The notes beneath the pieces were generated by a model. That model was not told where the DNA came from. It made no database searches and saw only the letters and a list, made by a program, of their open reading frames with translations. A DNA stretch of 64,000 bases. It comes from Stegostoma tigrinum (lineage: Eukaryota). The stretch lies in contig NC_081373.1 of NCBI RefSeq assembly GCF_030684315.1, positions 29,241,989 through 29,305,988 on the forward strand, read 5' to 3'. The position numbers were made by a program, and so were the translations under genes. This document shows positions 6,832 through 64,000 of the stretch, piece by piece. Positions within the stretch are counted from its first letter, which is position 1. Each line of letters starts with the position of its first letter.

Positions 6832-7854
6832 CCAACACATCATTTTCTGACACTTCCGCCATCTGCAGTCCGACCCCACCACCAAAGACGTTTTTCCCTC
6901 CCCACCCTTATCTGCTTTCCGGAGGGATCACTCTCTCCATGACTCCCTTGTCCGCTCCACACGCCCCTCCAGCCCCACCACACCCAGCACTTTTCACAGC
7001 AACCACAAGAAATGATACACCTGCCCCTACACTTCCCCCCTCACCCCCATCCCAGGCCCCAAGAAGACTTTCCACATCAAGCAGATGTTCACCTGCACAT
7101 CTGCTAATGTGGTATACTGCATCCGCTGTTCCTGTTGTGGCCTCCTCTACACAGGGGAAACCAAGCAGAGGCTTGGGGACCGCTTTGCAGAACACCTACG
7201 TTCGGTTCGCACTAAACAACTGTGCCTCCCAGTTACGAACTATTTCAACTCCTCTTCCCATTCCTCAGACGACATGCCCATCCTGGGCCTCCTGCAGTGC
7301 CACAACGATGCCACCCGAAGGTTGCAGGAACAGCAACTCATATTCCGCTTGGGAACCCTGCAGCCCAAAGGTATCAATGTGGGCTTCACAAGCTTCAAAA
7401 TCTCCCCTCCCCCTACCACATCCTAAAACCAGCCCAGCTTGCCCCTGCCTCCCTAACCTGTCCTTCCTTCCACCTATCCCCTCCTCCTACCTCAAACTCC
7501 AAGCCCATCTCCAACCTACTAACCTCATCCCGCCTCCTTGACCTGTCCATCCTCCCTGGACTGACCTATCTCCTCCCTAACTCCCCACCTACACTCACCT
7601 TTACTGGCTACATCCCCGCCTCTTTGGCCTGTCTGTCTCCTCGCCACCTATCTTCTCCTCTATCCATCTTCTATCCACCTCCCGCTCTCTTCCTATTTAT
7701 TTCAGAATCCCCTTCCCCTCTCCCGTTTCTGAAGAAGGGTCTAGGCCCAAAACGTCAGCCTTCCTGCTCCTGTGATGCTGCTTGGCCTGCTGTGTTCATC
7801 CAGCTCTACACCTTGTTATCTCAGATTCTCCAGCATCTGCAGTTTCCACAATCT
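6832..7854 (+). mobile_element. 5'-truncated Penelope-like element (Neptune-type), family 1
   Basis: GIY-YIG ORF, C-rich 3' UTR, hammerhead motif 7729-7756; 13-bp TSD cttataaaaaaaa at 6819-6831 and 7855-7867. Confidence 0.92.
7085..7426 (+). pseudogene. GIY-YIG endonuclease domain of PLE (open frame, but part of a truncated copy)
   Basis: NVVYCIRCSCCGLLYTGETKQRLGDRFAEH...HFN-like...EQQLIFRLGTLQPKGIN: GIY/YIG halves, conserved R, E and N, and the CCHH motif typical of PLE endonucleases. Confidence 0.9.
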
Positions 7855-11520: not shown

Positions 11521-12879
11521 CATTAAATAAGAACAGTATATAAATGGAAATATTAGCGGCTAGTTGTGTTGAGATCGACATTTAAAACAAAACTAACGTC
11601 TGAGAAATCTAATGCGATACATTTCGGCAGGAAGAATGAGTGGGTTAATAAAAAGCTTGAGAGGTTGTAGTGCAGCCTAATGCAGATATCATAAAGTCAA
11701 TTACCTAGATATAAAAGGAGAGCTGGTCATGATTGATTAGTGAATGGATTAACAGGCACGCTGGAAATAAACAGTGGGATACATTTAAAGAAATGACTTA
11801 ATGTTCAGCAAACATACATTACAAAGAAACAAAAACTCAACAAGAAAGATCCAATTTTAACATAAGGCAGTTACAGATAATATTAAATTAAAAGAAGAGG
11901 ATTTATGTTTGCAAAGAATAGTAAAAAGACTGAGAATTGGGAAAGTTTAAAAACCTACAATGCATGCCCGACAAATTAATAGTGAAAATAATAGAATATG
12001 AGTATAAGTTAGCCAAGAATATAAAATCAGATTGTAAGAGACCTGAATAAGAACAGATTCACAAATGTTGTGTAATATTTCCATTATTACGAAAACAGAT
12101 ATTGCTTGCAAATCTGAACAGATCCAGCAGCATCCATGGGAAGAAAGTGGAGTTAATGTTTTGAATGGTGACTCCCATCAATTCCATCCATTGTCTTTTA
12201 ATCTTAAACAGAGGTTGATGATGCGCAAAACTTATGAAGACTTTTCCTAATCTTCATTTTGATTTTTTTAAAACGTTGCAATTTCTCCAAAAATAATTTT
12301 GCCATTTACAAAGAAACTGTATTTATTGAGAACATTTCATACAACCTTTCATTGCCTGACAAGTGCTATAAGTTCTTTTGAAGTGTTGTCACTGTTGTAA
12401 TATAAGAAATACAGCAGGCAATGTGGATACAACAGTTTTCATCAGACATAAGCATGATAATGATCAGACAACCTGTTACAGTAATGTTTTTAGTTAAATT
12501 GTCTTCAAATCAATTCATGACCTTGCTCTTCCTTTTGTCACTATCTCTACTCCTATAATAATATTCCTCCAATCTTCCATTTCTGGCATCTTGTTGAACC
12601 TTAATTTTAACTGCTCCACCATTTGTAGTCATGCCTTACTTGCATTTATCTAACCTTGAAATTGCTTTGCTAAACCTCTCTATGTGTCTCATTCTGATCA
12701 GCCAGAAATGGAACTTGTGAATAAATGGCTCTATTTTTCTGGATGGAAGGAGATGACCGTTTGTGTACCAAAGGGATTGATGCTTGGACTCCAGTTATTC
12801 ATGACATGATGATGGAACCAAAAAACAATATTTCCATTATAACGAAAACAGATATTGCTTGCAAATCTCAACAGAGGTT

Positions 12880-24120: not shown

Positions 24121-24966
24121 ATGTTATGAGATGAAGACAGACAGCCAAAACAAATCAGTCTCCATAACCCTGTATTTACAAGACAGTAAAACTAAAATAT
24201 TCAATGACAGAGAAAATTTCCCCAATGGTTCCTAACCAGACTTTTTGAATAACCAATACCTGACACCAAATTTATAGCTTAAACAAAACAGTTAACAAAT
24301 TATTAATAATACAGTAGTTTTAACAAAGAAAATTAAACAGTAGGGTATTCTAATTAAGGTTTGTGATTTAAACCCAATGTTCTTTGACTCTAGTCCCCAG
24401 TTATACAGAAACAGATGGACAAACAGACACATATAAGGGATAAATTAAAAGAAGATGTAATTAGCCAGTTCATGTAAACAGTTTCCAAGATACATAATAC
24501 TTTGACACTTGGTACATTACCTTGCTTGTAGACACTGTTCAAATCAAATAGCTTCCAGCAGCCTACGACAAATATTCATTTAATTCTTATAACTGAGATT
24601 CCATCTCTGAACTTTCAATAAGCTGATAATGGGAGGATATTCAAGAAACAATCAAACATTTGAGCTGTAACTTTGGGAGCCACGTATTTTCTGACTTAAA
24701 CACAGTTCAAAACCAGTTCAAATTTTGATTTCTCTTTTTGTGTATTCCAACATTTTCTTTGTTACCATAACTTCCTGTGAGGTCCCAATATGTTCAAACA
24801 TCTGCCAACTGTTTGAGCATAAAACATCACTGAAACTGAAGTGTCTACAGTTCGTTGAACAAGAATCAACCTGCAATTAATTTTCAGGCCTGGTCTCATA
24901 AATAAATATCAGTTTGTTTGTTCTGTTCTCTTTGAAATAAGCTGCTGCTCACAGCTCAGAAATTAC

Positions 24967-25316
24967 CTTCAGCTCTCAGCCAACAGCTCATAGCTCCAAA
25001 TGAAAATTGATAAAACAAAAATAAAAATTTTGAAGGTCTTGGCATGTAGAAAATAGGAGCAAGAGTAATCCTTTCAGTCCTTGGAAGACAAACAGGAGGC
25101 TGGAAGAACAGAGATAAAGGGAACTGCAGTTGCTGGAGAATCCAAGATAGCATCTGCAGTTCCCATTATCTCTGTTCTTCCAGCCTCCTGTTTGTCTTCC
25201 AAGGGCTGAAGGGATTACTCCTGCTCCTATTTTCTACGTGCCGAGACCTTCAAAATTTTTATTTTTGTTTTATCAATTTTCATTTGGAGCTGTGAGCTAT
25301 TAGCTGTGGACTGAAG
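24967..25316. repeat. Long inverted repeat (~168-bp arms, 14-nt loop) centred on a PLE 3' end
   Basis: 24967-25134 is the reverse complement of 25149-25316, with mostly transition mismatches. Confidence 0.95.
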
Positions 25317-25380
25317 AACTTAGCAGGCCAGGCGGCATCTGAAAAGGACTAGTTAACACTTTGGGTATTACCCTTCCATG

Positions 25381-27060
25381 AAACCTGCTCTGCCATTCTT
25401 TATGAACATATTTGATCAACCAGCTCAATTCCTGTTCCTGCTTTTCCCTCATATCCTTTTATCCCTTTAGCTCCAAATCCTTCTTCAATTATACAATGTT
25501 TTGGTTGTGACTGCATTCTGTGGTAGCAAATTCCGCAGACTCATCACTCCAGGTGAAGAAATTCCTTCCTATCTCAGTCCTAAATGGCTTACCCCATATT
25601 CTCAGACCATCACCTCCGGTTCTGAACTCCCCCACCATTGGGAACATACTTCCTGCATGTACCCAATCTAGTCCTGTTAGAATTTTATAGGTTTCAATGA
25701 AATCGCTCTTAATCTTCTGAATTCCAGTGAATATAATCCTAACCAATTCAACCTCTCCTCATATGTCAGTACTGACATTCTGGGTATCAGTCTCGTATAC
25801 ATTTGCTGCAGTCCCTTTTTAGCAAGAATATCTTTCGTCAGATAAGGAGACTGAAATTGCATATGATATTCCAGGTGTAGTCTCAGCGAGGCTCTTTATA
25901 ATTATAGCAGGATGTCTTTGCTCTCGTACTCAAATCCTTTTGTCATGAGGGCAAACATGCCAAATGTCTTCTTTACTGCCTGCTGCACCTGCATGCTTAT
26001 CTTCTAATACAGGTTTATGATGGCACCCAGTTCTCATTACTAATTCCCCTAACTCAGTTTATAACCATTCTGATAATAATCTGCCTTCTTGTTTTTGCTA
26101 TCAAAGTGGACAATCTCCAATTCATCCAAATTAGACTGTAACGGCCATGTATTTGCCCACTCAGCTTGTCCAAATCGTAATGAACCATTTCTGTATCCTC
26201 TTCGCAGCACACCCTCCCACACAGTTTTGTGTCACCTGCAAATTTGGAGATATTACATTTAGTTCCCTCATCTAGAACATACAGCAGTATAGCACAGTAT
26301 AGGCCTTTTGGCCCACGATGTTGTGCCAACCTATTATCCTACTAAGATCAAACTACCCTGCATGCCCTACATTTTACTATCTGCATGTGCCGATCCAAGA
26401 GTTGCTTAAAAGTCTCCAAAGTATCTGACTCTAAAGTCTCTAAAATGTCTGACTCCACAACTATTAATATGTATTTTAATTAGCTGAGGTCCTAGCACTG
26501 ATCCCCGCAGTACCCAACTAGTCACTACCTGTCATTCAGAGAAAGACCCATTTATTTCTACTCTCGGTTTCCTGTCTGACAAACAGTTTTCTAGTCAATA
26601 CACTACTCTCAACTGCATGCGTTTTAATTTGAAGTGCTTATGGGGGACTCTGTTGAATGTGCAAATAGAGCTCATCCACTAGCTGTGCTTCATCAGCACT
26701 ACTAGTCCCTGAAGAATTCCAGTACATTTGTCAAGCATGATGTCCCTTTCATAAATCTATGCTGACTCTATCTGATCCTGGACTCTATCATTTTCCCCAC
26801 CAACAATGTCAGGCTGGTCCATCAGTCTCAAATTTTTCTCTACTTCCCTTCTTAAATAAAGGGGTTGCATTAGCTACCCTCCAAACTGTAGGCACTGTTC
26901 CAGTGTCTATAAAATCTTCAAAGATGACCACTGAATGAACAATGCAACTGTTATTTCTCGGGCCACTTTCTTAAATACTCTAGGATGCAGAATGTTGAGG
27001 CCTGAGGATTTATCAGCCTTCAATCACATCAGTTTCACCGACACCATTTCCTTTAGTACT
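25381..27060 (-). mobile_element. CR1 LINE 3' portion; its extreme tail lies at ~25043-25082, and a second CR1 tail is nested at ~26272-26460
   Basis: ORFs 25489, 25677 and 26054 (LGLYSLEFRRLR, CNISKFAGDTKL). Confidence 0.9.
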
Positions 27061-32940: not shown

Positions 32941-34983
32941 ATTTGATTTTGATTTGATTTATTATTGTCACATGTACCTAGGTACAGTGAAAAGTTTTTG
33001 TTTTACATGCAGTACAGGCAGAGCAGATCATTCAAAGATCATTGGGTGATAGAATAGAGTGAGGAGTACAATGCTACAGACGCGCAGAAGGTGCACAAAA
33101 AGCAAGAACAACATTAGATTTGAAATTTGACAAGTCCATTCAGCAGCCTAATAACAGCAGAGAAAAAGCTGTTCTTGAACCTGTTGGTACATGTGTTTAA
33201 GCTTTTGTATCTTCTACCTGTTGGAAGAGGTTGGAAGATATTATAATCTGGATCGGTGGGCTCTTTGATGATGTCAGCTACCATTTGGAGGCAGTGAAAA
33301 GTGTAGATGGAGTCAATAGAAGTTTGGCTTGTGTGATGGACTGGGCTGTGTTCTCAGCTCTCTGCAGTTTCTTACAGAGCTGGGCAGAGCAGTTGTTGTA
33401 CCAAGCTGCTTTCTATGGTGCATCTATAAAGATTGGTGAGGGTCCTTATGGACATGCCAAATTTCCTTAGCCTCCTAAGGCATTGTGCCTTCTTGACCAT
33501 TGCATCAATGTGGGTGGTCAAGGACAGATTAGTGGTGATTGTTATCTTTACACCGCACAAACAAACACTGTATCCCTTTCCTGTATTCTATCTCACTATT
33601 GTTTGATATCCAGCCTATAATGATGGTGTCATCTGTGAACTTGTAGATGGAGTTTGGATAAAATATGGCCACACAGTCATGAGTGTACAGCAAACAGCTA
33701 AATACACAGACTTAGATAACAAAGTGTGAGGCTGGATGAACACAGCAGGCCAAGCAGCATCTTAGGAGCCACGTTTCGGGCCTAGACCCTTTATCTAGGC
33801 CCGAAACGTCAGCTTTTATGCTCCCAAGATGCTGCTTGGTCTGCTGTGTTCATCCTGCCCCACACTTTGTTATCTTTGATTCTCCAGCATCTGCAGTTCT
33901 TATTATGTCTAAGTGCACAGTCTTGTGGGGCGCCAGTGTGGAAGATTGTTGTGGAAGAGGTGCTGTGGCATATCCTCACTGATTGCAGTCTGTGGGCCAG
34001 GAAGTCAAGGATTCAGTTGCAGAGGGTGGAGCAGAGACTAGGTCTTTGAGTTTGGAGATTAGTTTGGTTGGGATTATAGTGTTGAAGGCAGAACTCTAGT
34101 CATTAAGTAGAATTTGATGTAGGTATCATTATTATCCAGCTGTTGCAGGGATGAGTGTAAGGCTAGGGAGATGGCATCTACCACGGCCTGATGTGGCAGT
34201 AGACAAATTGCATGGGATTAAGGCAAGCTGGGAGGCGAGAGTTGATATGAGCCATGGCTAGCCTCTTGAAGCACTTTATAATTACGGAGGCCGGAGCCGC
34301 TGGGTGGTTGTCATTGAGGCACATTACATGTGTTTTCTTTGGTATTGGGATGATAGTGGTCTTCTTGAAGTAGGTGGGGACTTCAGATTGTAGCAAGGAA
34401 AAGGCAAAGATGTTAGTGAATACTCCCGCCAGTTCATCCACACAGGATCTGAGTGTACGGAGACTCCATCTGTGCCAGTCACTTTCCATTGGTTCACTTT
34501 CAAGAAGGCCAATCTGACATCTGCAGCAGTGACTGAGGGAACAAGTACATCTGAGGCCGTTGGGGTAGGTGACACTGTTCGAGCCAAGCGTAAAATGTAT
34601 TGTGGACATTAGGGAGTGATGTATTTTTTCCTCTATTCTGTTCTGCTTCACTTTGTAGCCTATTATCTTATGTAGGTCTTGCAACATACAGCGCATGTCT
34701 GTGTGGTTAGGTTGGGTCCCTAACTTAGTCCAGTATTGCGCTTTGCATCGCTAATGGTGAAATGGAGATCCTGTCTGGAGTTCCTGTAAAAATCAGGGTT
34801 GTCTGACTTGAATGCCACCCCTAGTCTTCAGCACACAATAGATTTCCCAGTTCATCCATGGGTTGGGTTCCAGTTGGGGAACATATGGACTGAGGTCTTT
34901 GGCATGCAGTCTTCTCCACATCTGCTAATGAATTCAGTGCCAGTGGTGGCATACATGCCTAGGCTGACCGCTGATGTTGTCTA

Positions 34984-35050: not shown

Positions 35051-35374
35051 ACAACCTCTTTGGCTACTGCTCAGAAAGCAACCCTCGATGAGACTCCCCA
35101 AAATTGACACCTAGCTGACATTTTTATAACATTCAGTTTTACAGCCTTTCTGCTAGTGTAGTAGTTACTGTATCAACAATTGTGTAGGCAGGCCATCACA
35201 TTAGCCCACCATGGTATTGCTTGAATCCTACCGACCCATCTCCCATGGACACTCATGTCCCCATATCTCAATCATGTCTGCGTTCCTTTATAGCCCAATG
35301 TCAAATCGGAACAATCTCAACTCCCATCACAATCCTTTGCCTTGCCTTCTGTATGTCAATTCAACTATTATCCA

Positions 35375-35510
35375 AGATAATAAAATGTGAGGCTGGATGA
35401 ACACAGCAGGCCAAGCAGCATCTCCTGAGATGCTGCTTGGCCTGCTGTGTTCATCCAGCCTCACATTTTATTATCTTGGAATCTCCAGCATCTGCAGTTC
35501 CCATTATCTC
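35375..35510. mobile_element. Palindromic mini-PLE
   Basis: Perfect 54-bp arms (35371-35424 and 35427-35480); exact 14-bp TSD tcaactattatcca at 35361-35374 and 35511-35524. Confidence 0.95.
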
Positions 35511-38500
35511 TCAACTATTATCCAGTTGGGTGCACCTCAGAAGGCATGAGTTATTTGTCTAATGCTTCTGCTGTCCTTAAAAAGCATTCTCATTTAGGTT
35601 TGATTGTTCAATCCCTTACAGAAACAAGTATTTCCATCAGTCATACCAAGCACAGCAGAAGATGGTTTTGTTTTTTGGAGGGCCATCATCTTAATCTCAG
35701 AACAGCAGTGCAGCAGTTTCTTTGGATTTGAATGTTTAAATTTGAAGGCCAGTTAGAAAGGTTGACAATGGAGGAAGGAGATAGGGAAAGATGCAGAGAA
35801 CTTTAAAGTGATAACAGAACCATGAACTGGCTCAAGTAAATCTTATGTTATTTCATTACAGAAAGCTCATCTAGCCAATAGAAATGTAAGTATAGTGAAT
35901 GTGATGTTAGAAAGCCAATCTGTTTTTTCCTTACCATAAAACAGTGCAATTAAAAGCAAATTGGTGATAGTTGAATGGTAAACCAGTGAAAATAGAGCAA
36001 GTTATCTGACACTTATGGGAGCTGGAAGTGTGCTGTTTGGTCAAAGATTTTGGTTGACCAAGACGTCTGTATAATCAATATAAATCATACACTAAATAAT
36101 GCAGGCTGTGTACACATTACAGTTATACCTTACTTACAGTATAAATCACTTAATAATAATACGTTATTAATACAAGGTTGACTTAAACTTACAGGCAGAG
36201 AGCCTTCTCACTCCCATCCTCAACTGACTAATTAGACATTGTGACATTGTGATAATACTATAAACTTATGGTATTTCAGGTATCTATTTTTTGCCATTTC
36301 ATCAAGAACGTCAGTTTATAAGGTGCTGGTTGAAACAAAGTTTACTGTAATATGATATTTTCAGAATCTTCAGAAAAGACAATATCAACAAAGGAAATGG
36401 GTGTTAAAACACCAACAATGACACATATGAAACATATTCTAAAAGAACATGCTAGAGTGGGGCTTTGGCTCCAGGCAGACAAGGGAATTCACCCTTGAAT
36501 TCTGCCACAGTGAATCAGATTACTGGAAGTTTTTGTCGTTTAGGGAGAAGCATTTTCTCACTCCTCTAACAAAACAAGTGGACAGATTAATATTTTGAGA
36601 GCTGATGGGACAGGTTGGTGGCTGGTAATATGCTTTACATTTCAGATAGTCTGATTAACAAGGAATTATTATTACAGGTGTATTGAGATTTATAAATATG
36701 GCTCTTTGTACAAAATATTTTAAAATTGACTTGATTGACAATATTGTTACTTGGGAAATTGTTTCTAGGTTACTTTTTAAAACAGTTGATTTTAAGCTGG
36801 GTAATGATTCAACAAGTATGAAATTCTTGCCATTTCTGACAGCTTCAAGTGAAACAGCTGAGATGAGATAAACAGAGATTTTACAGGTGAAATATCCTGG
36901 ACATTCTCTGCTTGTGGAGTAGCTTTAGCCAAGCTCCTAAAGCTGAAAAATAACCAGCCTTGGACCAAGAAATGATGGTATCAGAAATGCAAGAATTTCA
37001 GTAAAAGCCTAAAGAGCTACAGTCTGCCAAAGAGAAAAAAGAACTGATTAGTGTAAGGGACCAACAGTCAAGTGCAAAACATGAATTTACGGATGAAAAA
37101 TGCAAAGTGGTGACAACAGTTGAGCATTGGCTGCAGGAAGTGAAACACTTGAATGAATGTTTGAAACATCCAAATGATAAAATGTTGAAGTAGCCAGATC
37201 TTGATGGACTTCAAGTACCAGAGGCCTGTGTGAGGTATCATGAAAAATGCTTTGAATAAGAGAAAGAATTGTTCATGATACTGAACAATTGCCTGAAAAC
37301 AGACTTAAAAGCCCAAACTTACAAAACTATTGGAACGTCATCTTAGGAAGAATAATCAAAGTGTTGAACACCAATGCAATCTGAAGAACAAGAACGGTAA
37401 TTTGTACAGTGGAAGAGCAAATCAAGACTTTAAAAGCAACTAAGGAAAAATTTAAGGATCAGACTGAAGTGATGATAAATAAGTCAAGAGATTCTAAGAT
37501 GTAGTCTGCAAATATAAAAATAAAATTCCAAAATAAACAGAGTTCCCATATGAAGTGGTCAGACTAGTGAGAAGCTTCTACTGAAATTTCTAACACTAAG
37601 AACCATCTAACTGAGTAGATTGGTGCAGTTGTTAAGCTGAATAAAAAGTTCAACCAACTTGGGAAATAATTGGAGAATAATAAGACAGTAAATTTTCGGA
37701 AGTAGTTATAAACAAAGTGGAAATGAAAACTTATTGTTTGAAGAATCAGTAGGAAGAAAATGATGTGTGCAGAAGACTGTAGTACGCCATTCAGATAAAC
37801 TTGGAAATGGTTTGGGTGAATAGAGCAAAGCACCATTGGTGCAAGTTCATTCATCTATGATGACAAAACATTATCTGGAACGCTTGAGGATGATAATTAT
37901 GAATCTCATCAATCTGAAATATGTGTTTTCAATTCTAAAATTAAAGGACCCATTGAACGTGTGCTTCAAAAGAAAAGTAAGAAAAAGAACGTTCTTCAGT
38001 ATTCAAATTGAGAAACAGCTGTTAAAAGTCATTTGTATTATACAGTATGAGGGAAGTTTTTTGTATGTGAAGGGGGAAAGCCACCAGAGTATTAATTCAT
38101 AGTTACACCAGAATATTTGAAAACCTATGGTATATAATAGAAATATTATGTTAATGAAGGAAATTATCAACATATGATGTACATCCACAACTGAAACTCT
38201 TAACATTAAGTTCACATTTACATGATTTCTTTGAGAAGAAATACCAAAAGATAACTAGTCCATTGTTAATAATAATTCACTAAAAATGCTTGGGTGGAGG
38301 CACTGTTCTGAAGTAGCTATCAAAATATACTGTTGAAGCTGATTAGGGACTCTTAGTCATATGCCTGGCCAGGTTAAACTGACCTGGAACCACTTGATGC
38401 TGACATTTGGTATGGGAAGTGAAAAGTAATTTATTCATGGCACTGGCATCCTGAATCTTGATGAGCGTAATATTCAGAGTTCAACATTGAGAAAATTAAA

Positions 38501-39429: not shown

Positions 39430-40662
39430 CAGACAGAAACAGACAATGTATCGGGGTGGGGGAGAAACAAAGAAATAGCTGAACAACTGAATGCAGACTT
39501 TGGTTCTGTCTTCACAAAAGAGGACACAAATCAGATATGAGAAATGTTGTAGAATGCAAAATTTAATGAGAGGGAAGAATTGAGAGAGATCAATATTAGT
39601 AGAGAAATGGTGCTGGGAAAATGGATGGGATTGAAGGTGGATAAATCCCCAGGGCCTGATAACCTACGTCCCAGATACTTAAGGAAGTGGCTATAAAAGT
39701 AGTGGATGCATTGGTGATCATCCTCCAGGATTCTATAGAATCTTGAACAGCTCCTTCAAGTTAGAGGTTGGCTAATGCCACTCCAGTATTCAAAAAGGGA
39801 GGTAAGGAGAGAACAAGGAATTATAGACCAGTAAGCCTAACATCAGTAGTGAGGAAAATTCTCAAATCCATTGTCGAGGATTTTCTCGTAGAGAATTTAG
39901 AAAGCAGTGGCAGGATTAGGCAGAGTCAGCATGTTTTGGGTCTGGTGACCATTCCTCTGTTAACAACTGCAACAACACATCCCTGCCCCTAGGAAATCTT
40001 GCTTGACAGATCTGTTGGATTTCTATGAAAATGTAACTATTGGAGTTGACAAGGGGAGAGGGTCAATGTGGTATATTTGGACTTTCAGAAAGTGTTTGAC
40101 AAAATTACGCATATTGTGCAAAATTAAAGCTCATGGGATTGGGGGCCATGTATTGAAATGGATAGAAAATTGATTGGCAGAGAGGAAACAAAGAATAGGA
40201 ATTAATGGGTTATTTTCAAATTAATCCACAATAACTAGTGGGGTTCCATAGGGATTGGTGCTGGGACCCTAGCTATTCACAACATATATCAATGATTTGA
40301 ATGAGGGAACAAAATGTAGCAGCTAAAAGTGTGCAGATGATACCAAGTTGGGTGGGAGACTGAACTGTGATGTGGATACAGAGGTTCTTCAGCATGATCT
40401 GGGCAGATTGGGTGAGTGGGCAAATCAATAGCAGATACAGTATAATTTGGAAAAAATATGAGGTTATTCACTTTGGATGCAAACCCAGAATGGCTGTAGA
40501 TTGGGAGAGGGGAGTGTACAGTGAGACCTGGGTGTCCTGGTGCACTAGTTGCTGAAGGTAAGCATGCATGCAGGTTCAGCAGGCAGTAAAGAAGCCAAAT
40601 GGTATGTTGGCATTCATTGCAAGAGGCTTCAAGTTCAGAGGCAGGTATGTGTTGTTGCAGTT
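39430..40662 (+). mobile_element. CR1 ORF2 RT fragment
   Basis: ORF 39768 ANATPVFKKGGKERTRNYRPVSLTSVV; ADDTKLGG. Confidence 0.92.
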
Positions 40663-40664
40663 GT

Positions 40665-40792
40665 TAACAGAGGAAAGGTCACCAGACCCAAAACATTAAC
40701 TCTGTTTTTTCTTTCCCTGATGCTGCCAGACCTGCTGAACTTTTCCAGCAACTTTGTTTTTATTCCTGATTTACGGCATCTGCAGTTCTTTT
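40665..40792 (+). mobile_element. PLE family 2 3' end
   Basis: Degenerate hammerhead aggtcaccagacccaaaacattaactct, then gatgctgccagacctgctga...gcatctgcagttctt. Confidence 0.7.
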
Positions 40793-44336: not shown

Positions 44337-44588
44337 ACTAAAATAAAATAGAGAACTGCAGATGCTGAAGATATCTGAAGCAAACAAAGGCAGAAACTGT
44401 TGGAAAAACTCAAAAGGTCTGGTAGCATCTACGGAGAGAAAACAGAGTCAACCTTTCAAGTCTGATGACTCTTCTTCATAAGAGTTCTGAAGGACGGTAA
44501 CTGAATTCAAAAAGTTGACTCTATTTTCTCTCCGTAGATGCTGCTAGACTGGCTGAGCTTCTCCAGCAGTTTCTTCCTTTGTTTGTTT
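44337..44588. mobile_element. Tail-out palindromic insertion of PLE family 2
   Basis: Inverted arms (agcatctacggagagaaaacagagtcaac / gttgactctattttctctccgtagatgct) meeting at two decayed hammerhead cores; TSD caatgaatat at 44327-44336 and 44589-44598. Confidence 0.8.
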
Positions 44589-45984
44589 CAATGAATATTC
44601 AATGAATAATACAATGCTCATTTACTTGCTGAAAAGAAAGAAGAAAAAGGACAGAGTTAATGGACGAATAGTTATTGGAAGAACTTTCTTTGAATGTATG
44701 TGATGTGGTGTCGTTATCCATACATCAGCTCACATAAAATGTACACCAGAGACTTGAGTTCTGTTTGAGACAGATGTCTTGAAATTTATAAACAAGTATG
44801 CACACTAATATGACATCTCAAACTTACAGTTTATGCTGTGTGCTTACTTACATTACTATTACAGTAAATACATAGTTGACAGCTTGATTAGCTGGCTGCC
44901 TAAGTGCTTAAATGTAAAGAGGACAAGAGGAAACTTTTAATACTGAAGTGTCAAATGCTGTAGTGTAATCTAGCTGCCTTAAAAGTATGGTGCCTTTCTG
45001 AGGTCTGTGAAACAACACAACAGAATTTTGTTCTGCAGTGAATCAGAGAATATCAGTGATCAGTCTAGCAGTTGACTGTCTCACATTTGGCATTATCTGT
45101 GAATATTCCTCTTCCTGCCAATGTAACAACTCACAAAGGCATGTGAACAATGTTATTTTTGGGAATTGGCACACTGTATACCTTAAAAGCTACACCAGTG
45201 TCACTTTTATTTCATTCCCATGCAACCTTGTGCCCCCTCTATATGAGATTGTTAATTTCAGGACACTTTAGACCTTCAGACCTGCCTTATTGGAGTCACT
45301 AGGAGAAAGAGAGCCCTTGATCATGGATATTTTCCCAGAAGATGTCCATAGATGTAAATGAAGAGTGGCGTGCAGACATGAGGCCTTGAATAACAGCACA
45401 AGTCCTGCAGGAGAGAGGGAAAGGGGGTGGGTGATAGCTTTCTCCTCTGCAACTACCGAATATGAATCTCCTTCACCGGTACCTCCAGTGCTGCATCCCT
45501 GAACCTATGTGACCTCTCCCTCGGTCCTTCTAGACATACCTAGGGTAGTTTCTTTAAATGAGGTCATTATGGACATTGGAATTTTACTAATGGGACTTCC
45601 TAGAAATCACATGACTGGCGAGACCTACTTGCTTTGCTATAGATCCTCGTCAGGTTGTTTGAATAGTGAATGGTTGGAGATTTTCTTGTTTTATCTGATT
45701 GAATTAGAGGGGAGCCTGCAAAGAAAAGCTGAGTTGGAGAAAAGCTTAAAGCTGATTTCTGCCATTTCTAAAAAGAAAACTCACCTCATCTGTTCAAGGT
45801 GATACCTATATGTTCTTTTGAAATAGTGATTGAAAGAGCATCCCATAGTTATATTTCCTGAGCAAGCCTGATCTAAAGTTTTCAGAGGCAACTGCACATA
45901 ATTAATTGCTTGATCACACGCACCAGAACATTAAAGTAACTGACTCCAGGACTTCGTATGCTTTATCTTTTCATCTTTTCTTGA

Positions 45985-47119: not shown

Positions 47120-48205
47120 AATGATTTAAATTTGGACTCTGAGAAAAAGAGCACAAATATCTCCAAATTTGCAGATGACACAAAGCTAGATGGGAGGGTG
47201 AGCTGTGAGGAGGATGTAGAGATCTTTGGACAAGTTGAGTGAGTGGTAGTTGGAGTATTATGTGGACATTCATGAAGTTATCAACTTTGTCACAAAAACA
47301 GGAAAGCAGCTTGTTATCCGAATGAAGCTAGATTGGGAAATGAGGTGGTGCAGTGAGATCTGGCTTCCTTGTACACCAGTTGCTGAGAATTAGCAGAGAT
47401 AACAAGGTGTAGAGCTGGATGAACACAGCAGGCCAAGCAGCATCAGAGGAGCAGGAAGGCTGACGTTTCGGGCCTAGACTGGAAGAACGGGTCTTAGATT
47501 CTCCAGCATCTGCAGTTTCTACCATCGCTGAGAATTAGCATGCAGGTGTAGCAGGTAGGAGAGAAGGTAAATGGTATATTGGTTTTTGTAGTGTGAAGGT
47601 TTGAGTACAGGATCAGGGATGTCTTGCTGCGATTGTACAGGGCCTTGGCAAGACCACACCTGACGTATTGTACGCAGTTTTGATCTCCTTATCTGAGGAA
47701 GGATGCTCTGCTATGGAGGAAGTGCAGCAAAAACTTACCAGACTGATTCCTTGGATGGTCGAACTGACAAATGAAAGGAGATTGGATCAATTAGGACTAT
47801 ATTCAGGACAGTTTAGAAGAATCAGTGTGTCTCATAGAAACCTATAAAATTCTGTCTAGGGTTGGATATGGTAAATACAAAAAGGATTGTCCTGATGACT
47901 GAGGAGCCCAGAACCAGGGGTCACAGGATACAGAGCAGGCCATTTAGGACTGAAATGAGGAGAAATTTCTTTATGAAAGATTAATGAGCCTGTGGAATTC
48001 TGTGCCACAGAAAGCATTTGAGACCAAAACACGTTTTCAAGAAGGAGTTAGATATACATCTTAATGCTAAAGGAATCAAAGGGGTGTAGAGAGAAAGCGT
48101 GAACAGGGCACTAAATTAAATCAGCAGCCATGATCATACTGGATGTTAGAACAGCTTCAAAAGGCTGGGTGGCCTGTTCCTGCTCCTCTTTACTATAACT
48201 CTATA
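47120..48205 (+). mobile_element. CR1 3' ~1 kb with nested mini-PLE
   Basis: ISKFADDTKL, RPHL, 3' hairpin and tail. Confidence 0.9.
47396..47526. mobile_element. Inverted mini-PLE
   Basis: Exact 14-bp TSD gctgagaattagca at 47382-47395 and 47527-47540. Confidence 0.92.
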
Positions 48206-48292
48206 AACAAAATGCATCCTTTAAAATCCCACCTACCTCTTGCACCTCATGATTTGAGCCACAGTTAGGAACTGAACAGGATCCATTTTTAA

Positions 48293-48376
48293 GAGATAAT
48301 AGGAACTGCAGATACTGGAGAATCCGAGATAACAAAGTGTGGAGCTAAATGAACACAGCGGGCCAAGCAGCATCAG
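48293..48376 (-). mobile_element. PLE family 1 3'-terminal ~84 nt, fused to a tRNA copy
   Basis: gagataataggaactgcagatactggagaatccgagataac...ggccaagcagcatcag. Confidence 0.92.
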
Positions 48377-48381
48377 GTCTT

Positions 48382-48455
48382 GGCTGGATAGCTCAGTTGG
48401 TTACAGTGTGGTGCTAATAATGCCAAGGTCACGGGTTTGACCCCCGTAGGATCCA
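48382..48455 (+). pseudogene. tRNA-Ile(AAT) retrocopy/pseudogene
   Basis: GGCTGGATAGCTCAGTTGGTTACAGTGTGGTGCT-AAT-AATGCCAAGGTCACGGGTTTGACCCCCGTA matches vertebrate tRNA-Ile-AAT with CpG-decay changes; the T-loop (TTTGA) is damaged and the 3' acceptor strand is supplied by target DNA. Confidence 0.9.
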
Positions 48456-51400
48456 TTTTTAACACGTGTAGTGAATAGGAACTTGATGTACATGCTATTA
48501 TCTTGTCCCAAAAATTAATGACCTTCCAATAGGAAATAAAAACCTTCTGAAAACTAACATCACCATGCCTGTCCCAAGACTTGCCTATTATCTGTAGCTG
48601 AAAAATGGACAAAATGTAATCTTAATAGGAATTCCAATCTCTAAGATTGTGTTTGTAATAAAACAATGATATTAAATTTTACATACAAAAAATTGCCACA
48701 TTTTGCTATTGCTAAGAAATAGTTTACCAATTCAACAGTCATAGTTTATTTTTGTATAAGCTATATTTACAATAATTCAAACTTTCATTTGGTAGAGCTA
48801 TAAAAATTACCTCATGAAAGGGAATCATCCTGGATATTTTGCCTGTTCTGGTGATGATAATTTCAATGGATCATTTTACCTTAGGGCTTCAGTGCGCACA
48901 CTCCTTGCAACAATAAAACAAATGGACTTTGTACAGGTTGGGCTGAAGGGCTAAAATTGCTGATGATATCTGAGAACTGCATGACCTGGAATGAGTCCTG
49001 TGAACATCCCTGTACATGTGGTATTTGCTTTTGTACTTGCTGTTTGTTACACTGCATAAAAGAGAGAGTTTCATTCCAAGTCGCTGGGCTTCACCTCAGA
49101 CCTGGATCATGAACAGTACCAGGAATGAATCTAAGCCTCTAGAGTAACTGTTGTTTGAGGGGATTCCGATGCAGAGGGACATAAGGCTGCTTGCTTCTTT
49201 TTCCTTTCTTTTCCATTTTTTCCCCTTTTATTGTTATTTTATACATGTTTATATTGATGCAAATTGCTGTTGTTGATTCTTCTCTTAATCACATTTAACT
49301 AAATCCATAAGAAGCGCTTGGATACGCTGTGGTCCAAGACAGACTTTTACCTGTGGTAATTTTAATAACATTCAAATTTATTTACTTAGTGAAATGAAGT
49401 TTTGGGTGAAAATGTTATTACAACAGGGCAAATGCAGCACCAGAAGAGTTTCCTGTATTTGTTTCCAGTATGTCTGCAACAAAACAAAATTGCTAAAAGC
49501 AGAATAATGGCTCCTGTGTAGTCACCAGTACGTCTTACTTGTGTGTAGAGCCAAATAGATTAGGCAGTTTATTTTAAGGACACAAGAAGATGTTGATAAA
49601 CTCATAAAAGTTTTGTTGTTGTGGGTTTATATTGCATATGTTCCTCAATCATATTTCACTGCTTATATAACATACCATCTCTTTTTTATTGTAGTGCATT
49701 TGATTCCTTTAAAAATCTATGATTTAATAGATGAAGTGTGCTTATTTTATACCTGAGCTAGATTTATTTATTTAATTATACAGTTTGAAATGACAGCTCT
49801 GTGACATTTGCCATATAAAATGCACTCAGCGGTTACTGCACAATAATAGATCAAATTAAGGGTTTCCTGCTCATCAATTGCAGACTATTCATTAATAAAT
49901 AAGTGCTAATAAATTCACAATCATAAATCTTTCTCTCACATTAATTTTGACTTTTTTAATATTTTAATTACGTGTTTCTAAATCTTAGGAATTATGCTCA
50001 ACATAAAATAAATTGCACTGCCATAGACTGTGTGCTATTCCAAACATGCATGCCATCTTTTTCCTTGTTGAACACTTTAGCCTGAGAAGTCAGCACATTG
50101 GGATGAAATCAAATTGCTGGATTACCGATTAACAAATAATTTCAGCAATGTGTTCTACAAACATGTATATTGATTACAACATTATTACAAAAGATTCATT
50201 TGCACTTAGCATTTTAAATACAAATCTATATGTTGTGTCTAATGCAGTAACTATTGAGCTTTATTTGCTAAATGAAATAATTTAAGAAGTGCACAATTTT
50301 TGAACAAATGGCTAAGCCACTTTCAATATGGTTAACTAAGTATTTAATTGTAATTCTGCATGTTAATTGGCAGAATAATAGAACTTAAACAGACTGTGAT
50401 ATCTTTGCATGTTAAGCAAATTCCAGACCTCAGGTGGTGTTTAAAATTCAGCTTCACCAGTAGAATAGCCAATTACTTATGTGATGCTATTTTGCAAAAC
50501 ATGCATCATGACTAATCGTCAACCATGGTAATTTCACTCACTTTCAGACAATTTCTCTTAAAATCAAGTAGAATTCCCCATATTTGCTCTTGCCTTATCA
50601 GCATGTCACCTTTTCTATATTGCTATTTGATCCAAAAATTGGTATTTAGGTAAATGGCTGTTTAGTGGTAACTGCACTTAAGCAACTTCTTTGTAAGTGG
50701 TGTAATCATTACTACAAATAGATCCCTTCAAACAGGCAAAAGTCAATCAATTTGATGAGTAGGAACACAATTATATTTTTCTACACACATTGTTCAAATC
50801 TGAATTAATTATTTTAAAGCACATTATTTATGTGGGCCCTATTTTGTACTTCTCAGTACATCAGCTATATAGTTTATATTAGCTGTGGTGAAAATTGTAT
50901 TTTAAATAATTTTATATATTATTGGTTAAATTTTAAGCTCATTTTAATTAACTACATGATGTAACTTTAGAATATGTTATAAAAAGGCAAAACACGAGGG
51001 GCATCAAGAGAATGAAAGGTGCTAGCATGCCTGAGTCTGCCATTTTCAGTGAAAATATTTCAAATAACGTGCCTAACGAATGGTAGTAGATGCAAGAAAC
51101 TCATATTCCAAACTTGGAAAAAGGAAGTTTTATTGACACTAAGGTGACATTAAGTTGAAAATGTGAAGACTTCATCAGTTACAATGTCATCAGGGCAAAA
51201 CATTTAGTTATTATTTCTTGCACAAGAATCTTGGAGATATCTTTGAAAGGTGAAATCATCCCAAGTTTCATGGAGTTATTTACATAGGTATTGTGAATCT
51301 CAGTTATGACTTCACCCAACAATGCTTCACAGAATTGACACTGCTGTAAGTTAATGGGTCAGCTCAATTGCAGTTTTATGCACACAAATCTTTCTTAACC

Positions 51401-56285: not shown

Positions 56286-57906
56286 TGTAATAACCCCACA
56301 GAGGCCAGTATCCTGTTATCAAATTCCCCCTTTATTTGTGCGTGGAAATTCCTTGGCACTGATCCAGCTCCCTCAGAGCCACACCTCAGAGTCAACAGGA
56401 TGTCTGATACTCCTGTACTTACCTGTTGACCAGGGCTTCCTGATTGTACCAGATTAACTGCCCCAATCAAGGAACTCATATTCTATGAAGTCCAGAGATA
56501 ATGGGAACTGCAGATGCTGGAGAATCCAAGATAATAAAGTATGAAGCCGGTTGAACACAGTAGGCCAAGCACCATGTCAGGAGCACAAAAGCTGACATTT
56601 CGGGCCTAGACCCTCCATCAGAGAGGGGGATGGGGAGAGGGTTCTGAAATAAATAGGGAGAGAGGGGAAGGCAGACCGAGGATGGATAGAGGAGAGGATA
56701 GGTGGAGAGGAGTGTATAGGTGGGGAGGTGGGGAGGGGTTAGGTCAGTCCAGGGAGGACGGACAGGTCAAGGAGGTGGGATGAGGTTAGTAGGTAGGAAA
56801 CGGAGGTGCGGCTTGAGGGGGGAGGAGGGGATAGGTGAGAGGAAGAACAGGTTAGGGAGGCGGGGACAAGCTGGGCTGGTTTTGGGATGCAGTGGAGGAA
56901 GGGGAGATTTTGAAGCTTGTGAGGTCCACATTGATACCATTGGGCTGTAGGGTTCCCAAGCGGAATATCTGACCCCACCACCCAAGACATTTTTCCATCC
57001 CCACCCTTGTCTGCCTTCCGCAGAGACCACTCTCTCCATGAGTCCCTCGTCCGCTCCACATTCCCCTCCAATCCCACCACACCCGGCACCTTCCCCTGCA
57101 ACCGCAGGAAGTGCCACACTTGCCCCACACCTCCTCCCTCACCCCCATCCCAGGCCCCAAGACGACTTTCCATATTAGGCAGATGTTCACCTGCACATCT
57201 GCCAATGCAGTATACTCTTCCACTGTACCCAGATTGGCTTCCTCTACATTGGGGAAACCAAGCGGAGGCTTGGGGACCGCTTTGCAGAACACCTTCGCTC
57301 GGTTCGCAATAAACATCTGCACCTCCCAGTCGCGAACCATTTTAACTCCCCCTCCCATTCCTTAGAGGGCATGTCCATCATGGGCCTCCTGCAGTGCCAC
57401 AATGATGCCACCCAAAGGTTGCAGGAACAGCAACTCATATTCCACTTGGGAACCCTGCAGCCCAATGGTATCAATGTGGACTTCACCAGCTTCAAAATCT
57501 CCCCTTCCCCCTCTGCATCCCAAAACCAACCCAGCTCATCCCCGCCTCCCTAACCTGTTCTCCCTCTCACCTATCCCCTCCTCCCACCTCAAGCCGCATC
57601 TCCATTTCCTACCTACTAACCTCATCCCGCCTCCTTGACCTGTCCGTCCTCCCTGGATTGTCCTATCCCCTCCCCACCTATACACTCCTCTCCACCTATC
57701 TTCTCCTCTATCCATCTTCAGTCTGCCTCCCCCTCTGTCCCTATTTATTTCAGAACTCTCTCCCTATCCCCCTCTCTGATGAAGGGTCTAGGCCTGAAAT
57801 GTCAGCTTTTGTGCTCCTGAGATGCTTCTTGGCCTACTGTGTTCATCCAGCTTCACACGTTGTTTTCTATGAAGTCCACCTGGCTGACCTCGTTACAATC
57901 ACTACA
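56286..57906 (-). mobile_element. Probable ~240-bp solo LTR (TGTAAT...ACTACA) split by a PLE
   Basis: TG...CA ends with imperfect inverted termini and AATAAA on the minus strand (~56330); TSD unclear. Confidence 0.5.
56495..57864. mobile_element. Large tail-out inverted PLE: minus arm 56495-~56968, plus arm ~56969-57864
   Basis: PGTFPCNRRKCHTCP zinc-finger-like linker (Neptune-type) and GIY-YIG remnants; exact 14-bp TSD ttctatgaagtcca at 56481-56494 and 57865-57878. Confidence 0.95.
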
Positions 57907-60900: not shown

Positions 60901-61185
60901 ATTAACCTGCCTTTGGGTGCCCAACGCAGGTACTACTCACCCTCCTACTCTAGGCCTCTTAAAACACCCTGAGCTCCAGGTCTGATGTTCTGATATCACC
61001 TAATGTTGCCCCCATTATGGCAGGGAAAGACAAGTGAGCATAAATAAAATCAACAAGGTCCACCACTGAAATAGTTTAATCCTTTATTCCCTCTTAGACC
61101 AGACGAGACTCATGTCTCTTTGTTTCAACATTTATTCATGCAAGCATGGGAGATGTAAATATCCAAAACTGGCATGCAGCTCAAA

Positions 61186-61354
61186 GATAATAGGAACTGC
61201 AGATGCTGGAGAATCCAAGATAATAAAGTGTGAAGCTGGATGTACACAGCAGGCCAAGCAGCATCTCAGGAGCACAAAAGCTTCATCTGATGAAGGGTCT
61301 AGGCCCGAAACGTCAGCTTTTGTGCTCCTGAGATGCTGCTTGGCCTGCTGTGTT
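61186..61354. mobile_element. Palindromic mini-PLE with hammerhead at the apex
   Basis: Exact 13-bp TSD catgcagctcaaa at 61173-61185 and 61355-61367. Confidence 0.93.
61287..61314 (+). ncRNA. Minimal hammerhead ribozyme motif, consensus core
   Basis: CTGATGA-A-GGGTCTAGGCCC-GAAACGTC; predicted cleavage after C61314. Confidence 0.75.
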
Positions 61355-61369
61355 CATGCAGCTCAAATC

Positions 61370-62140
61370 TCTATGGTCACATGGGCTGATCAAATGGAAT
61401 TCAGTCTGGATAATTGATGCACTTGTGCAGGACAAAAATGGCAGGGTTTTAAATAATGAATGGTCGGACCCCAGAAAGCACTAGGAATCAGAGGCACCTA
61501 GCTGTGCACAAAATCTCTTAAGGTATCAGATCAAGGGGGTATAAATGGTATGGTTGCATTTTATATCCAAGGTTTAGTGTTTAAGAGCAGGGAGGTTATG
61601 CTGGAACTGGATAAAACATTGGTCAGTCCACAGCTAGAGTATCGTGTACAGTTCTGAAATCCACAATAGAAGATGGATGTAATAATACTGGAGAGGTTAC
61701 AAAGCGGATTTTACAAGATGCTACTTGGGCTGGAGAGTTTCAGTTATGGACAGAGATTGGACAGACTAGGGTTGTTTTCCTCAGAACAGAAGAGATTGAG
61801 AGGTGACATGATTGAGATCTTTTGCATTACAAGGAGCATAGAGACAAGACATTAGGAAGCTTAGAGAAACAGAGGGATCTTGGGGTGAGAGATAATAGGA
61901 ACTGCGGATGCTGGAGAATCTGGGATAATAAGGTGTAGAGCTGAATGAACACAGCAGGCCAAGCAGCATCAGAGGAGCAGGAAGACTGACATTTTGGGCC
62001 TAGACCCTTCATCAGAAAATGGCAATGTACACAATACTATGAGCCAAGTGCAGGAAAATGGGATTAGAATGGTTAGGTGGCTGACCAGCATGGATTTATG
62101 GCCCAAAGGGCCTTTTTCTTACTGTGGCCTGTATGACTCA
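61370..62140 (+). mobile_element. CR1 3' portion with nested mini-PLE (~61888-62020, -)
   Basis: ORF 61673 RLGLFSSEQKRLRGDMIE. Confidence 0.85.
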
Positions 62141-63434: not shown

Positions 63435-64000
63435 GAAGAACAGTTTGATTGGTAATAAAGGAACAAAAAAATCAAAGTTCTGGAAAAGCTCAGCAGATCT
63501 GGCAGCACCTGTGAAGAAAAATCAGGAATGGTAGGAGTTGCAGATGCTGGAGAATCTGAGGTAACAAGGTGTAGAGCTGGATGAACACAGCAAGCCAAGC
63601 AGCATCAGAGGAGCAGGAAGGCTGACATTTCGGGCCTGAAGGGTCTAAGCCTGAAACGTCAATCTTCCTGCTCCTCTGACGCTGCTTGGCCTGCTGTGTT
63701 CATCCAGCACTACAGCTTGTTGCCTAAGAAAAATCAAGGCTAACTTTTCAGGTCCAATGACTCTTCCTCAGAATTGATGGTAGCTTGAAAAATGTTGATT
63801 TTTATGCAGAAGATAGGGTGGGGGGAGAGGGTAAAGAGTAAACGATAGGTGGGGATACAGCCCAAGGAGAGAGAGGAGCAGTCGGGTAGACAAAGGAGTT
63901 AATAACAATGTGATTACGAGAGTGAATAGCTCTTAATAGGGACTGTTAGTGATCTAACAATAGATAGTGCGTAATGCAGGCTATGTGATAACAAGGCCTG
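63435..64000 (-). mobile_element. PLE family 2 3' region; runs off the window end
   Basis: ctggaaaagctcagcagatctggcagca...; reverse complement CTGAGGAAGAGTCATTGGACCTGAAAAGTT; purine-rich UTR follows. Confidence 0.7.
63527..63725. mobile_element. Palindromic mini-PLE (family 1) nested in a family 2 element
   Basis: Arms meet in the hammerhead stem; TSD aagaaaaatca at 63514-63524 and 63726-63736. Confidence 0.9.

Follow-up and report, generated by a model that had tools for sequence, protein, structure and literature searches.

A 64,000-nucleotide stretch of DNA (the window) contains a long palindrome whose centre is the 3′ end of a Penelope-like element (PLE) and whose arms consist largely of host sequence. 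The locus raises the question of whether PLE insertion can copy neighbouring host DNA in inverted orientation and, if so, at what moment and with which polymerase. We approached it through the anatomy of the palindrome and its target, public sequencing runs from the same species and a relative, and the other copies of the same PLE family in the window.

A palindrome centred on a PLE terminus

The inverted repeat comprises two arms of 168 nt each (24967-25134 and 25149-25316) that are 92% complementary, with 13 mismatches, no gaps and 14 nt between them, which upholds the ~168-bp arms around a loop reported in a preliminary description of this DNA. It is the longest of the 13 inverted pairs no more than 400 bp apart in the window, and its folding energy of −175 kcal/mol (z = −28) was equalled by 0 of 100 shuffled sequences. 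A 48-nt block is identical between the two arms. Six of the 13 mismatches sit in the distal 25 nt (P = 0.005), and three distal mismatches may have originated as heteroduplex at the re-entry junction. The window holds no other copy of the palindrome, and an Rfam scan gave no match there, its one match in the whole window being a tRNA-like stretch at 48386-48455. The parts of the palindrome are as follows.

24967..25134, + strand: left arm, made of native flank (24967-25109) and the first 25 nt of the PLE stub; the relative's contig is unbroken over 24864-25113
25110..25149, − strand: PLE stub from a Neptune-type PLE, of which it keeps the last 40 nt at the 3′ end (the tail and about 5 nt more); on the + strand it reads as first-strand cDNA
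25135..25148, + strand: loop of 14 nt, PLE positions 26-39 counted from the 3′ end, holding a 3-bp mini-stem
25149..25316, − strand: right arm, a reversed copy of 24967-25134, from which two own-species contigs (25155-25291 and 25262-25601) show 0 differences in either of 2 runs
25149..25173, + strand: reversed PLE end, a copy of the terminal 25 nt, 25/25 identical to the family copy ending at 35511
25174..25316, − strand: reversed host flank of 143 nt, a copy of 24967-25109

In public contigs the stub's family carries varied flanks before 25109/25110 and leaves the sequence of this locus after 25149, which fixes the ends of the stub at 25110 and 25149. The ~39 nt of cDNA first proposed to precede a snap-back corresponds to a real stub, its length corrected to 40 nt; counting the C at 25109 as element would make it 41. 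PLE sequence is limited, as described before, to the loop and the central ~25 bp of each arm (25110-25149 plus the reversed 25149-25173).

The target is an older PLE-like terminus

The host flank was earlier described as pre-existing DNA with a CR1 tail and the start of another repeat. The flank proved native to the locus, and the interrupted repeat turned out to be an older PLE terminus. The elements of the target are these.

25044..25082, − strand: LINE 3′ tail, which aligns with three other window copies; its family appears to resume near 25381, beyond the older PLE
25083..25109, − strand: older PLE-like terminal repeat, the part left of the insertion point (target), placed by sequence comparison
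25320..25380, − strand: resumed part of the same repeat, likewise placed by comparison
25096..25109, + strand: putative staggered-cut (TSD) sequence of 14 nt, its length taken from family TSDs, the last 7 nt being GAAGAAC
25306..25319, + strand: re-entry junction, with exact GAAGAAC at 25313-25319, a 4-nt exact microhomology (GAAG) and a 10/14 ungapped match to 25096-25109

GAAGAAC is present at both edges of the insert (25103-25109 and 25313-25319). When 25110-25319 was deleted in silico, the older terminal repeat aligned over the join (79%, 52 nt, E 3.5e-6), which agrees with the claim that an interrupted repeat resumes after GAAGAAC, and other genomic copies of this repeat continue from about 25110 into sequence resembling 25321-25343. 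Read from these alignments, the flank is nested: a LINE tail split by an older PLE-like terminus, itself split by the young stub. The LINE tail (about 25044-25082) we take to be CR1-like; a Pfam search gave no match for two of the four frames tested, the putative LINE frame among them, and contigs of the LINE family have loose ends at 25201 and 25431. Directly past the re-entry junction, both bases at 25320-25321 differ from most related repeat copies, possibly having been created at the junction. Two places (25083-25380 and 63465-63530) have young PLE copies within or next to older PLE termini, a possible target preference.

Sequencing runs from the same species and a relative

Contig evidence was drawn from 4 of 17 listed sequencing runs, two from the species itself and two from a relative (organism A); among the runs set aside were six organism A runs with small shares, two further runs of organism B and three bisulfite runs. 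The own-species runs come from different samples, one of which may be the source of the assembly, and the organism A runs come from two studies. Both own-species runs yielded contigs from 24889 or 24885 to 25021 (1 difference) and over 25155-25291 and 25262-25601 (0 differences), so that both outer junctions of the palindrome are bridged in 2/2 runs. Contig ends fall at 25021 and 25262, which mirror each other and both lie 30 nt inside the 48-nt block shared by the arms, as expected of two paths entering one node. Contig support at the junction between the PLE and the reversed flank amounts to just 19 letters on one side in these runs, and the loop is spanned by none of the contig pieces listed for the four runs. 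Depth in the own-species runs is near the single-copy level in the outer arm (25019) and zero at left-arm positions 25040 and 25045, a hole that in itself proves nothing and is compatible with bubble removal in contigs.

In both organism A runs, one contig is unbroken over 24864-25113 and another begins at 25341. In run X4 the first continues past 25113 with 15 letters that do not fit the PLE, and the second carries 33 unfitting letters; if the site is empty, these two ends overlap by 31 nt. The contigs were presumably built with k = 31, adjacent ones then being expected to overlap by 30 nt, and since the overlap found is close to this value we read the relative's site as empty. The stub and the reversed copy thus appear to be absent from organism A in 2/2 runs, as judged from contig extents rather than letters, which is the outcome that the preliminary description had anticipated for an orthologous site. 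The flank, present once and in place in the relative, is native to this locus.

These data bear on whether the PLE caused the palindrome at all. It might have landed in a pre-existing palindrome or MITE, carried the flank from elsewhere by 3′ transduction, or been misassembled, and the unbridged loop among the listed contigs and the own-species depth hole at 25040 and 25045 would fit such accounts. The arms, however, differ at 13 positions (the ground on which the preliminary description judged an assembly artefact unlikely), hold nested older repeats and are not transposon ends; both outer junctions are bridged in two runs of different samples; and the relative has the flank once, in place. 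We regard an origin independent of the PLE as very unlikely. A MITE or DNA transposon with long TIRs was rejected in particular, given no other copy in the window, outer-arm depth near single-copy and a duplication tied to the PLE junction.

Organism A diverges from the present species by 6.1% (64 differences over 1057 positions in five of the eight listed X1 pieces, three partial matches inside the LINE being excluded). The arms diverge by 7.7%, slightly above this figure yet compatible with it (P = 0.22), and a fold-back event soon after the species split is compatible with these values. The 7 arm differences that could be polarised all look derived in the left arm. Three of them, however, stand among the listed rows of a table confined to sites at which the relative and the left arm differ; the 4 free of this ascertainment bias are all derived in the left arm (p = 0.125, two-sided). 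A left-arm mutation asymmetry, not significant after removal of the bias, was dropped. Summed depth over the stub, which is not a copy number, reaches about 1e5-fold single-copy in organism B against 3-5e3-fold in organism A, no more than a hint of lineage-specific expansion.

Ordinary copies of the young PLE family

The window is animal DNA rich in repeats, which resemble those of cartilaginous fishes, and it holds 11 other tail-bearing copies of the stub's family, all 5′-truncated, the longest about 1 kb. Two sets of features describe them.

7016..7426, + strand: GIY-YIG endonuclease frame in another copy of the stub's family (3′ end 7856), which identifies the family
33711-33910, 35371-35511, 56494-57868, 61182-61364 and 63531-63729: ordinary head-to-head copies, the tail-less arm being longer in four

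The GIY-YIG frame scored E 5e-4 and 20.7 bits against the Pfam model, under the gathering cut-off of 22.6, and fell among atlas GIY-YIG clusters at 0.96. Inspection by eye showed a motif resembling a hammerhead core near 61288-61312, and Rfam gave no hammerhead match in 61150-62100. The copy at 56968-57868 carries C-x4-C-x2-C upstream of the GIY-YIG frame; CX2-5CxxC between RT and EN is described as marking the Neptune and Nematis PLE clades (PMC8557442), and the motif does not tell the one from the other.

TSDs of 11-17 bp flank 8 of the 11 other copies (6 found by script, 2 by eye); one of the rest has a 9-bp duplication that includes a mismatch, and two show no duplication. The cut at the palindrome is thus likely to have had a stagger of about 14 nt as well, with 7 nt surviving exactly, a TSD-like duplication below the family's 11-17.

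Six of the 11 are head-to-head, with inverted arms and a tail on one side. Their second arm begins at element position 32-36 in four and at about 37 in a fifth, and it abuts the TSD wherever one was found, which places the hairpin base at element position 32-37 on one side and at the TSD on the other. In four of the six the tail-less arm is the longer (122 versus 117, 988 versus 517, 129 versus 100 and 123 versus 114), two of these margins being small. Because the tail-less arm reaches further into the element, these four cannot be fold-backs of the tail-bearing arm. Published PLEs have head-to-head ends with an inverted pLTR and a 30-40 nt tail on one arm (PMC3846280, PMC11167929, PMC8557442), an architecture known in its classical inverted form (PMC2377424). 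These papers offer two origins: self-priming, deduced from junction palindromes (PMC3846280), and the use of two RT start sites with extension of both strands, as the PLE protein shows in vitro (PMC11167929). The longer tail-less arm agrees better with the second than with the first, and the ordinary head-to-head palindromes in the window would fit twin priming from two start sites rather than self-priming. PLE ends thus lie routinely within palindromes (6/11 other copies), so a plain enrichment of PLE ends at palindrome centres would mislead.

Several further structures were seen. The sixth head-to-head copy, 47377-47529, has a 14-bp duplication, and in its tail arm element position 38 is followed directly by about 115, so that positions about 39-114 are missing; this second break at the tail boundary may be either an RT jump or a later loss of one hairpin arm. 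At 48278-48465 an 84-nt PLE 3′ stub is joined, in opposite orientation and inside one 15-bp target duplication, to tRNA-like sequence (48386-48455; Rfam tRNA 32 bits, ARAGORN 0 genes), as if the target end that primed PLE RNA had been joined by a second one priming on a tRNA or a SINE derived from one. An older, different PLE-like family shows the same layout of a tail and a tail-less head-to-head arm at 44340-44590 (106-nt arms, 76%). A 70-bp inverted pair, 91% identical and about 650 bp apart (39921-39990 and 40637-40704), touches an old PLE-like stub, its second member lying at the stub's 5′ end; this too might be an inverted copy linked to an insertion. Finally, a 49-bp direct repeat (12074-12122 and 12827-12875) is 96% identical at a distance of 753 bp.

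Probable fold-back synthesis from a 3′ end inside the stub

The palindrome departs from this family pattern. Its two arms run to one and the same PLE terminus and continue into one and the same flank, the second arm carrying the terminal 25 nt. The arms of a normal PLE differ by the tail and join different flanks (in the cited accounts), whereas here both carry the tail end and host DNA is duplicated. An ordinary twin-primed head-to-head insertion, whose second arm would be tail-less and join the opposite flank, was accordingly rejected: twin priming cannot make two arms that share a terminus and a flank. A 3′ end at position 40 must therefore have turned and copied 168 nt, or an equivalent replication or fusion event took place. 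We hold with high confidence that fold-back DNA synthesis of some kind occurred from a 3′ end inside the stub.

The best explanation, to which we assign a probability of about 0.5, is an aborted PLE insertion repaired by fold-back synthesis in a single event during insertion. The PLE endonuclease would have made a staggered cut of ~14 nt in the older PLE terminus, nicking the + strand after 25109, as the family TSDs suggest. Reverse transcription would have begun at the tail-end start site and come to a halt some 40 nt on, shortly beyond the second start site; the extent of the cDNA is seen in the stub, and the cause of the halt is deduced. The freed 3′ end would then have folded on itself through 1 nt of exact microhomology, probably helped by the 3-bp mini-stem in the loop; the microhomology would rise to 3/4 had the cDNA run three bases further. 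From there a DNA-dependent polymerase would have copied 168 nt back across the primer junction into host DNA, the product of which is present at the locus. The new 3′ end would have paired, through imperfect homology, with the overhang on the far side of the break, fill-in leaving the 7-nt exact duplication. The product would be a neutral scar specific to this lineage.

Of 495 positions compared, the exit point at 24967 gives the best imperfect match (10/12 columns) when the overhang is taken as 14 or 16 nt, but the win is narrow (14 versus 13), is lost with a 13-nt overhang and depends on a scoring picked after the site had been seen; the copied path holds 6 other exact matches of at least 4 nt to the overhang. 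Exact microhomology at the turn is limited to 1 nt, and by itself the 58-nt nascent strand forms no priming hairpin, folding no better than shuffles (z = −0.5). A host repair polymerase is favoured over the PLE RT for the 168-nt copy. At yeast double-strand breaks, microhomology foldback is followed by Pol delta synthesis and capture of the other end by end joining (PMC11724301, PMC10622511), and since host Pol delta makes foldback duplications there, the PLE enzyme need not have made the copy.

The same two junctions are predicted by a later hairpin event. An ordinary head-to-head PLE, twin-primed and with a TSD of ~14 bp, would have inserted first, and later replication would have stalled, or the DNA been cut, at the base of its hairpin (position about 36-40); the nascent end would have folded back, copied 168 nt and re-entered the right-hand TSD beyond the hairpin, deleting the rest of the element. 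This needs host machinery only, and it draws on the ordinary copies, 6/11 of which are head-to-head with one hairpin base near position 36 and the other at the TSD, a geometry that would explain both the stop at 40 and the re-entry inside the TSD. A break at the same boundary (position 38) is seen in the copy at 47377-47529, though it could equally be an RT jump at insertion. Against a template switch of this kind, two events are required and the second arm has left no trace; moreover, the PLE part of the right arm is 25/25 identical to a family copy and the arms have no derived change in common across these 25 PLE bases, a short stretch that makes for a weak test of shared decay. We consider such a later switch possible but less likely than a single event during insertion.

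An unsealed RT-extended end might instead have been hairpin-capped, or replicated and joined to its sister; the long palindrome so formed would then have broken at a distance of 143 bp from the junction and been sealed to the original right end. Such outcomes are described for L1 primary RT ends (bioRxiv 10.1101/2024.12.14.628481) and for yeast breaks (PMC10622511), but this one would need a second break and an original right end that survived a cell cycle; the published cases give translocations or large copy-number changes, whereas here both flanks are collinear with the relative. We find replication or fusion improbable, and are similarly doubtful that the PLE RT paused at the tail boundary (its second start site) and, after tail-only cDNA had snapped back, itself copied through the primer into host DNA.

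Three proposals of the preliminary description are thereby narrowed. Synthesis did cross the PLE-host junction into 143 nt of flank and the product was rejoined at the target, but its timing at insertion does not follow from the structure. DNA-templated synthesis during PLE insertion stands for the templated copy and falls short on timing, given the later hairpin event, and on any part played by the PLE enzyme, given what host Pol delta does at breaks. As for PLE insertion as a general route to palindromes, one such palindrome is real, and generality would have to come from more than one event.

Relation to known fold-backs

The aborted-insertion reading has close parallels. In R2 (PRINT), the 3′ end of the cDNA snaps back and primes on cDNA or nearby target DNA before the 5′ junction (PMC11371274); here, likewise, a cDNA 3′ end would have primed further DNA synthesis. 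The R2 cases in that account are engineered insertions into human rDNA, often after full-length cDNA; the present event, unlike them, is natural and fixed, involves a 40-nt cDNA of a GIY-YIG PLE and copies 143 nt of primer-side flank.

L1 foldbacks are inverted flank duplications of 52-220 bp, found in 0.3-0.4% of insertions (PMC10191854; bioRxiv 10.1101/2022.05.18.492429) and attributed to extra DNA-polymerase synthesis from the cDNA 3′ end (PMC10191854). They share with our locus a short inverted duplication of host flank at a retrotransposition site, but they copy the flank upstream of the target site, on the 5′-junction side (PMC10191854), whereas here the primer-side flank was copied and the element's own 3′ end duplicated. 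Self-annealing of about 2 bp primes synthesis in L1 inverted duplications, a TSD-like feature is kept, and foldbacks of the primary RT end carry insert at the junction; the two local duplications in that report lie on the reciprocal end, and its primary-end foldbacks resolve as large rearrangements (bioRxiv 10.1101/2024.12.14.628481). At our locus, by contrast, it is the primary end that would have folded back and resolved locally. Shared with retrotransposition foldback duplications in general are the inverted host flank at the insertion, absent beforehand as judged from contig extents, the small loop (14 nt), the short microhomology at the turn (1 nt exact) and a TSD-like duplication that is kept (7 nt exact). 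Yeast foldbacks have no retroelement and are mostly 5-34 bp or chromosome-scale (PMC11724301, PMC10622511). A published PLE fold-back into flank was not found in the main texts searched, a set that mostly leaves out subscription papers; cases of like geometry may be present in the supplements on R2 and L1.

Implications

We conclude that the palindrome is real: a single repair scar, specific to this lineage, of a kind for which L1 and R2 retrotransposons already give examples. It differs from those by element class, by the primer-side flank that was copied and by its local resolution. If PLEs matched the L1 rate of about 0.4%, one such scar would be expected in about 4% of windows with 12 copies. 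Searches for the fold-back pattern and family motifs gave 0 loci in metagenome contigs, viral contigs and prokaryote genomes, as expected for animal DNA and uninformative on frequency. As a single locus it is an ordinary repair scar; scars of this kind would gain in importance if, across the genome, they proved to be concentrated at the tail boundary. Were snap-back by the PLE RT true, a many-copy genome would keep host-sequence palindromes centred on PLE tails, and these would be a genomic record of the PLE second-strand step, a process whose later steps are described as yet to be validated (PMC11167929). A series of junctions could separate RT pausing from host repair. By such events, PLE-rich genomes can gain hairpins of unique host DNA.
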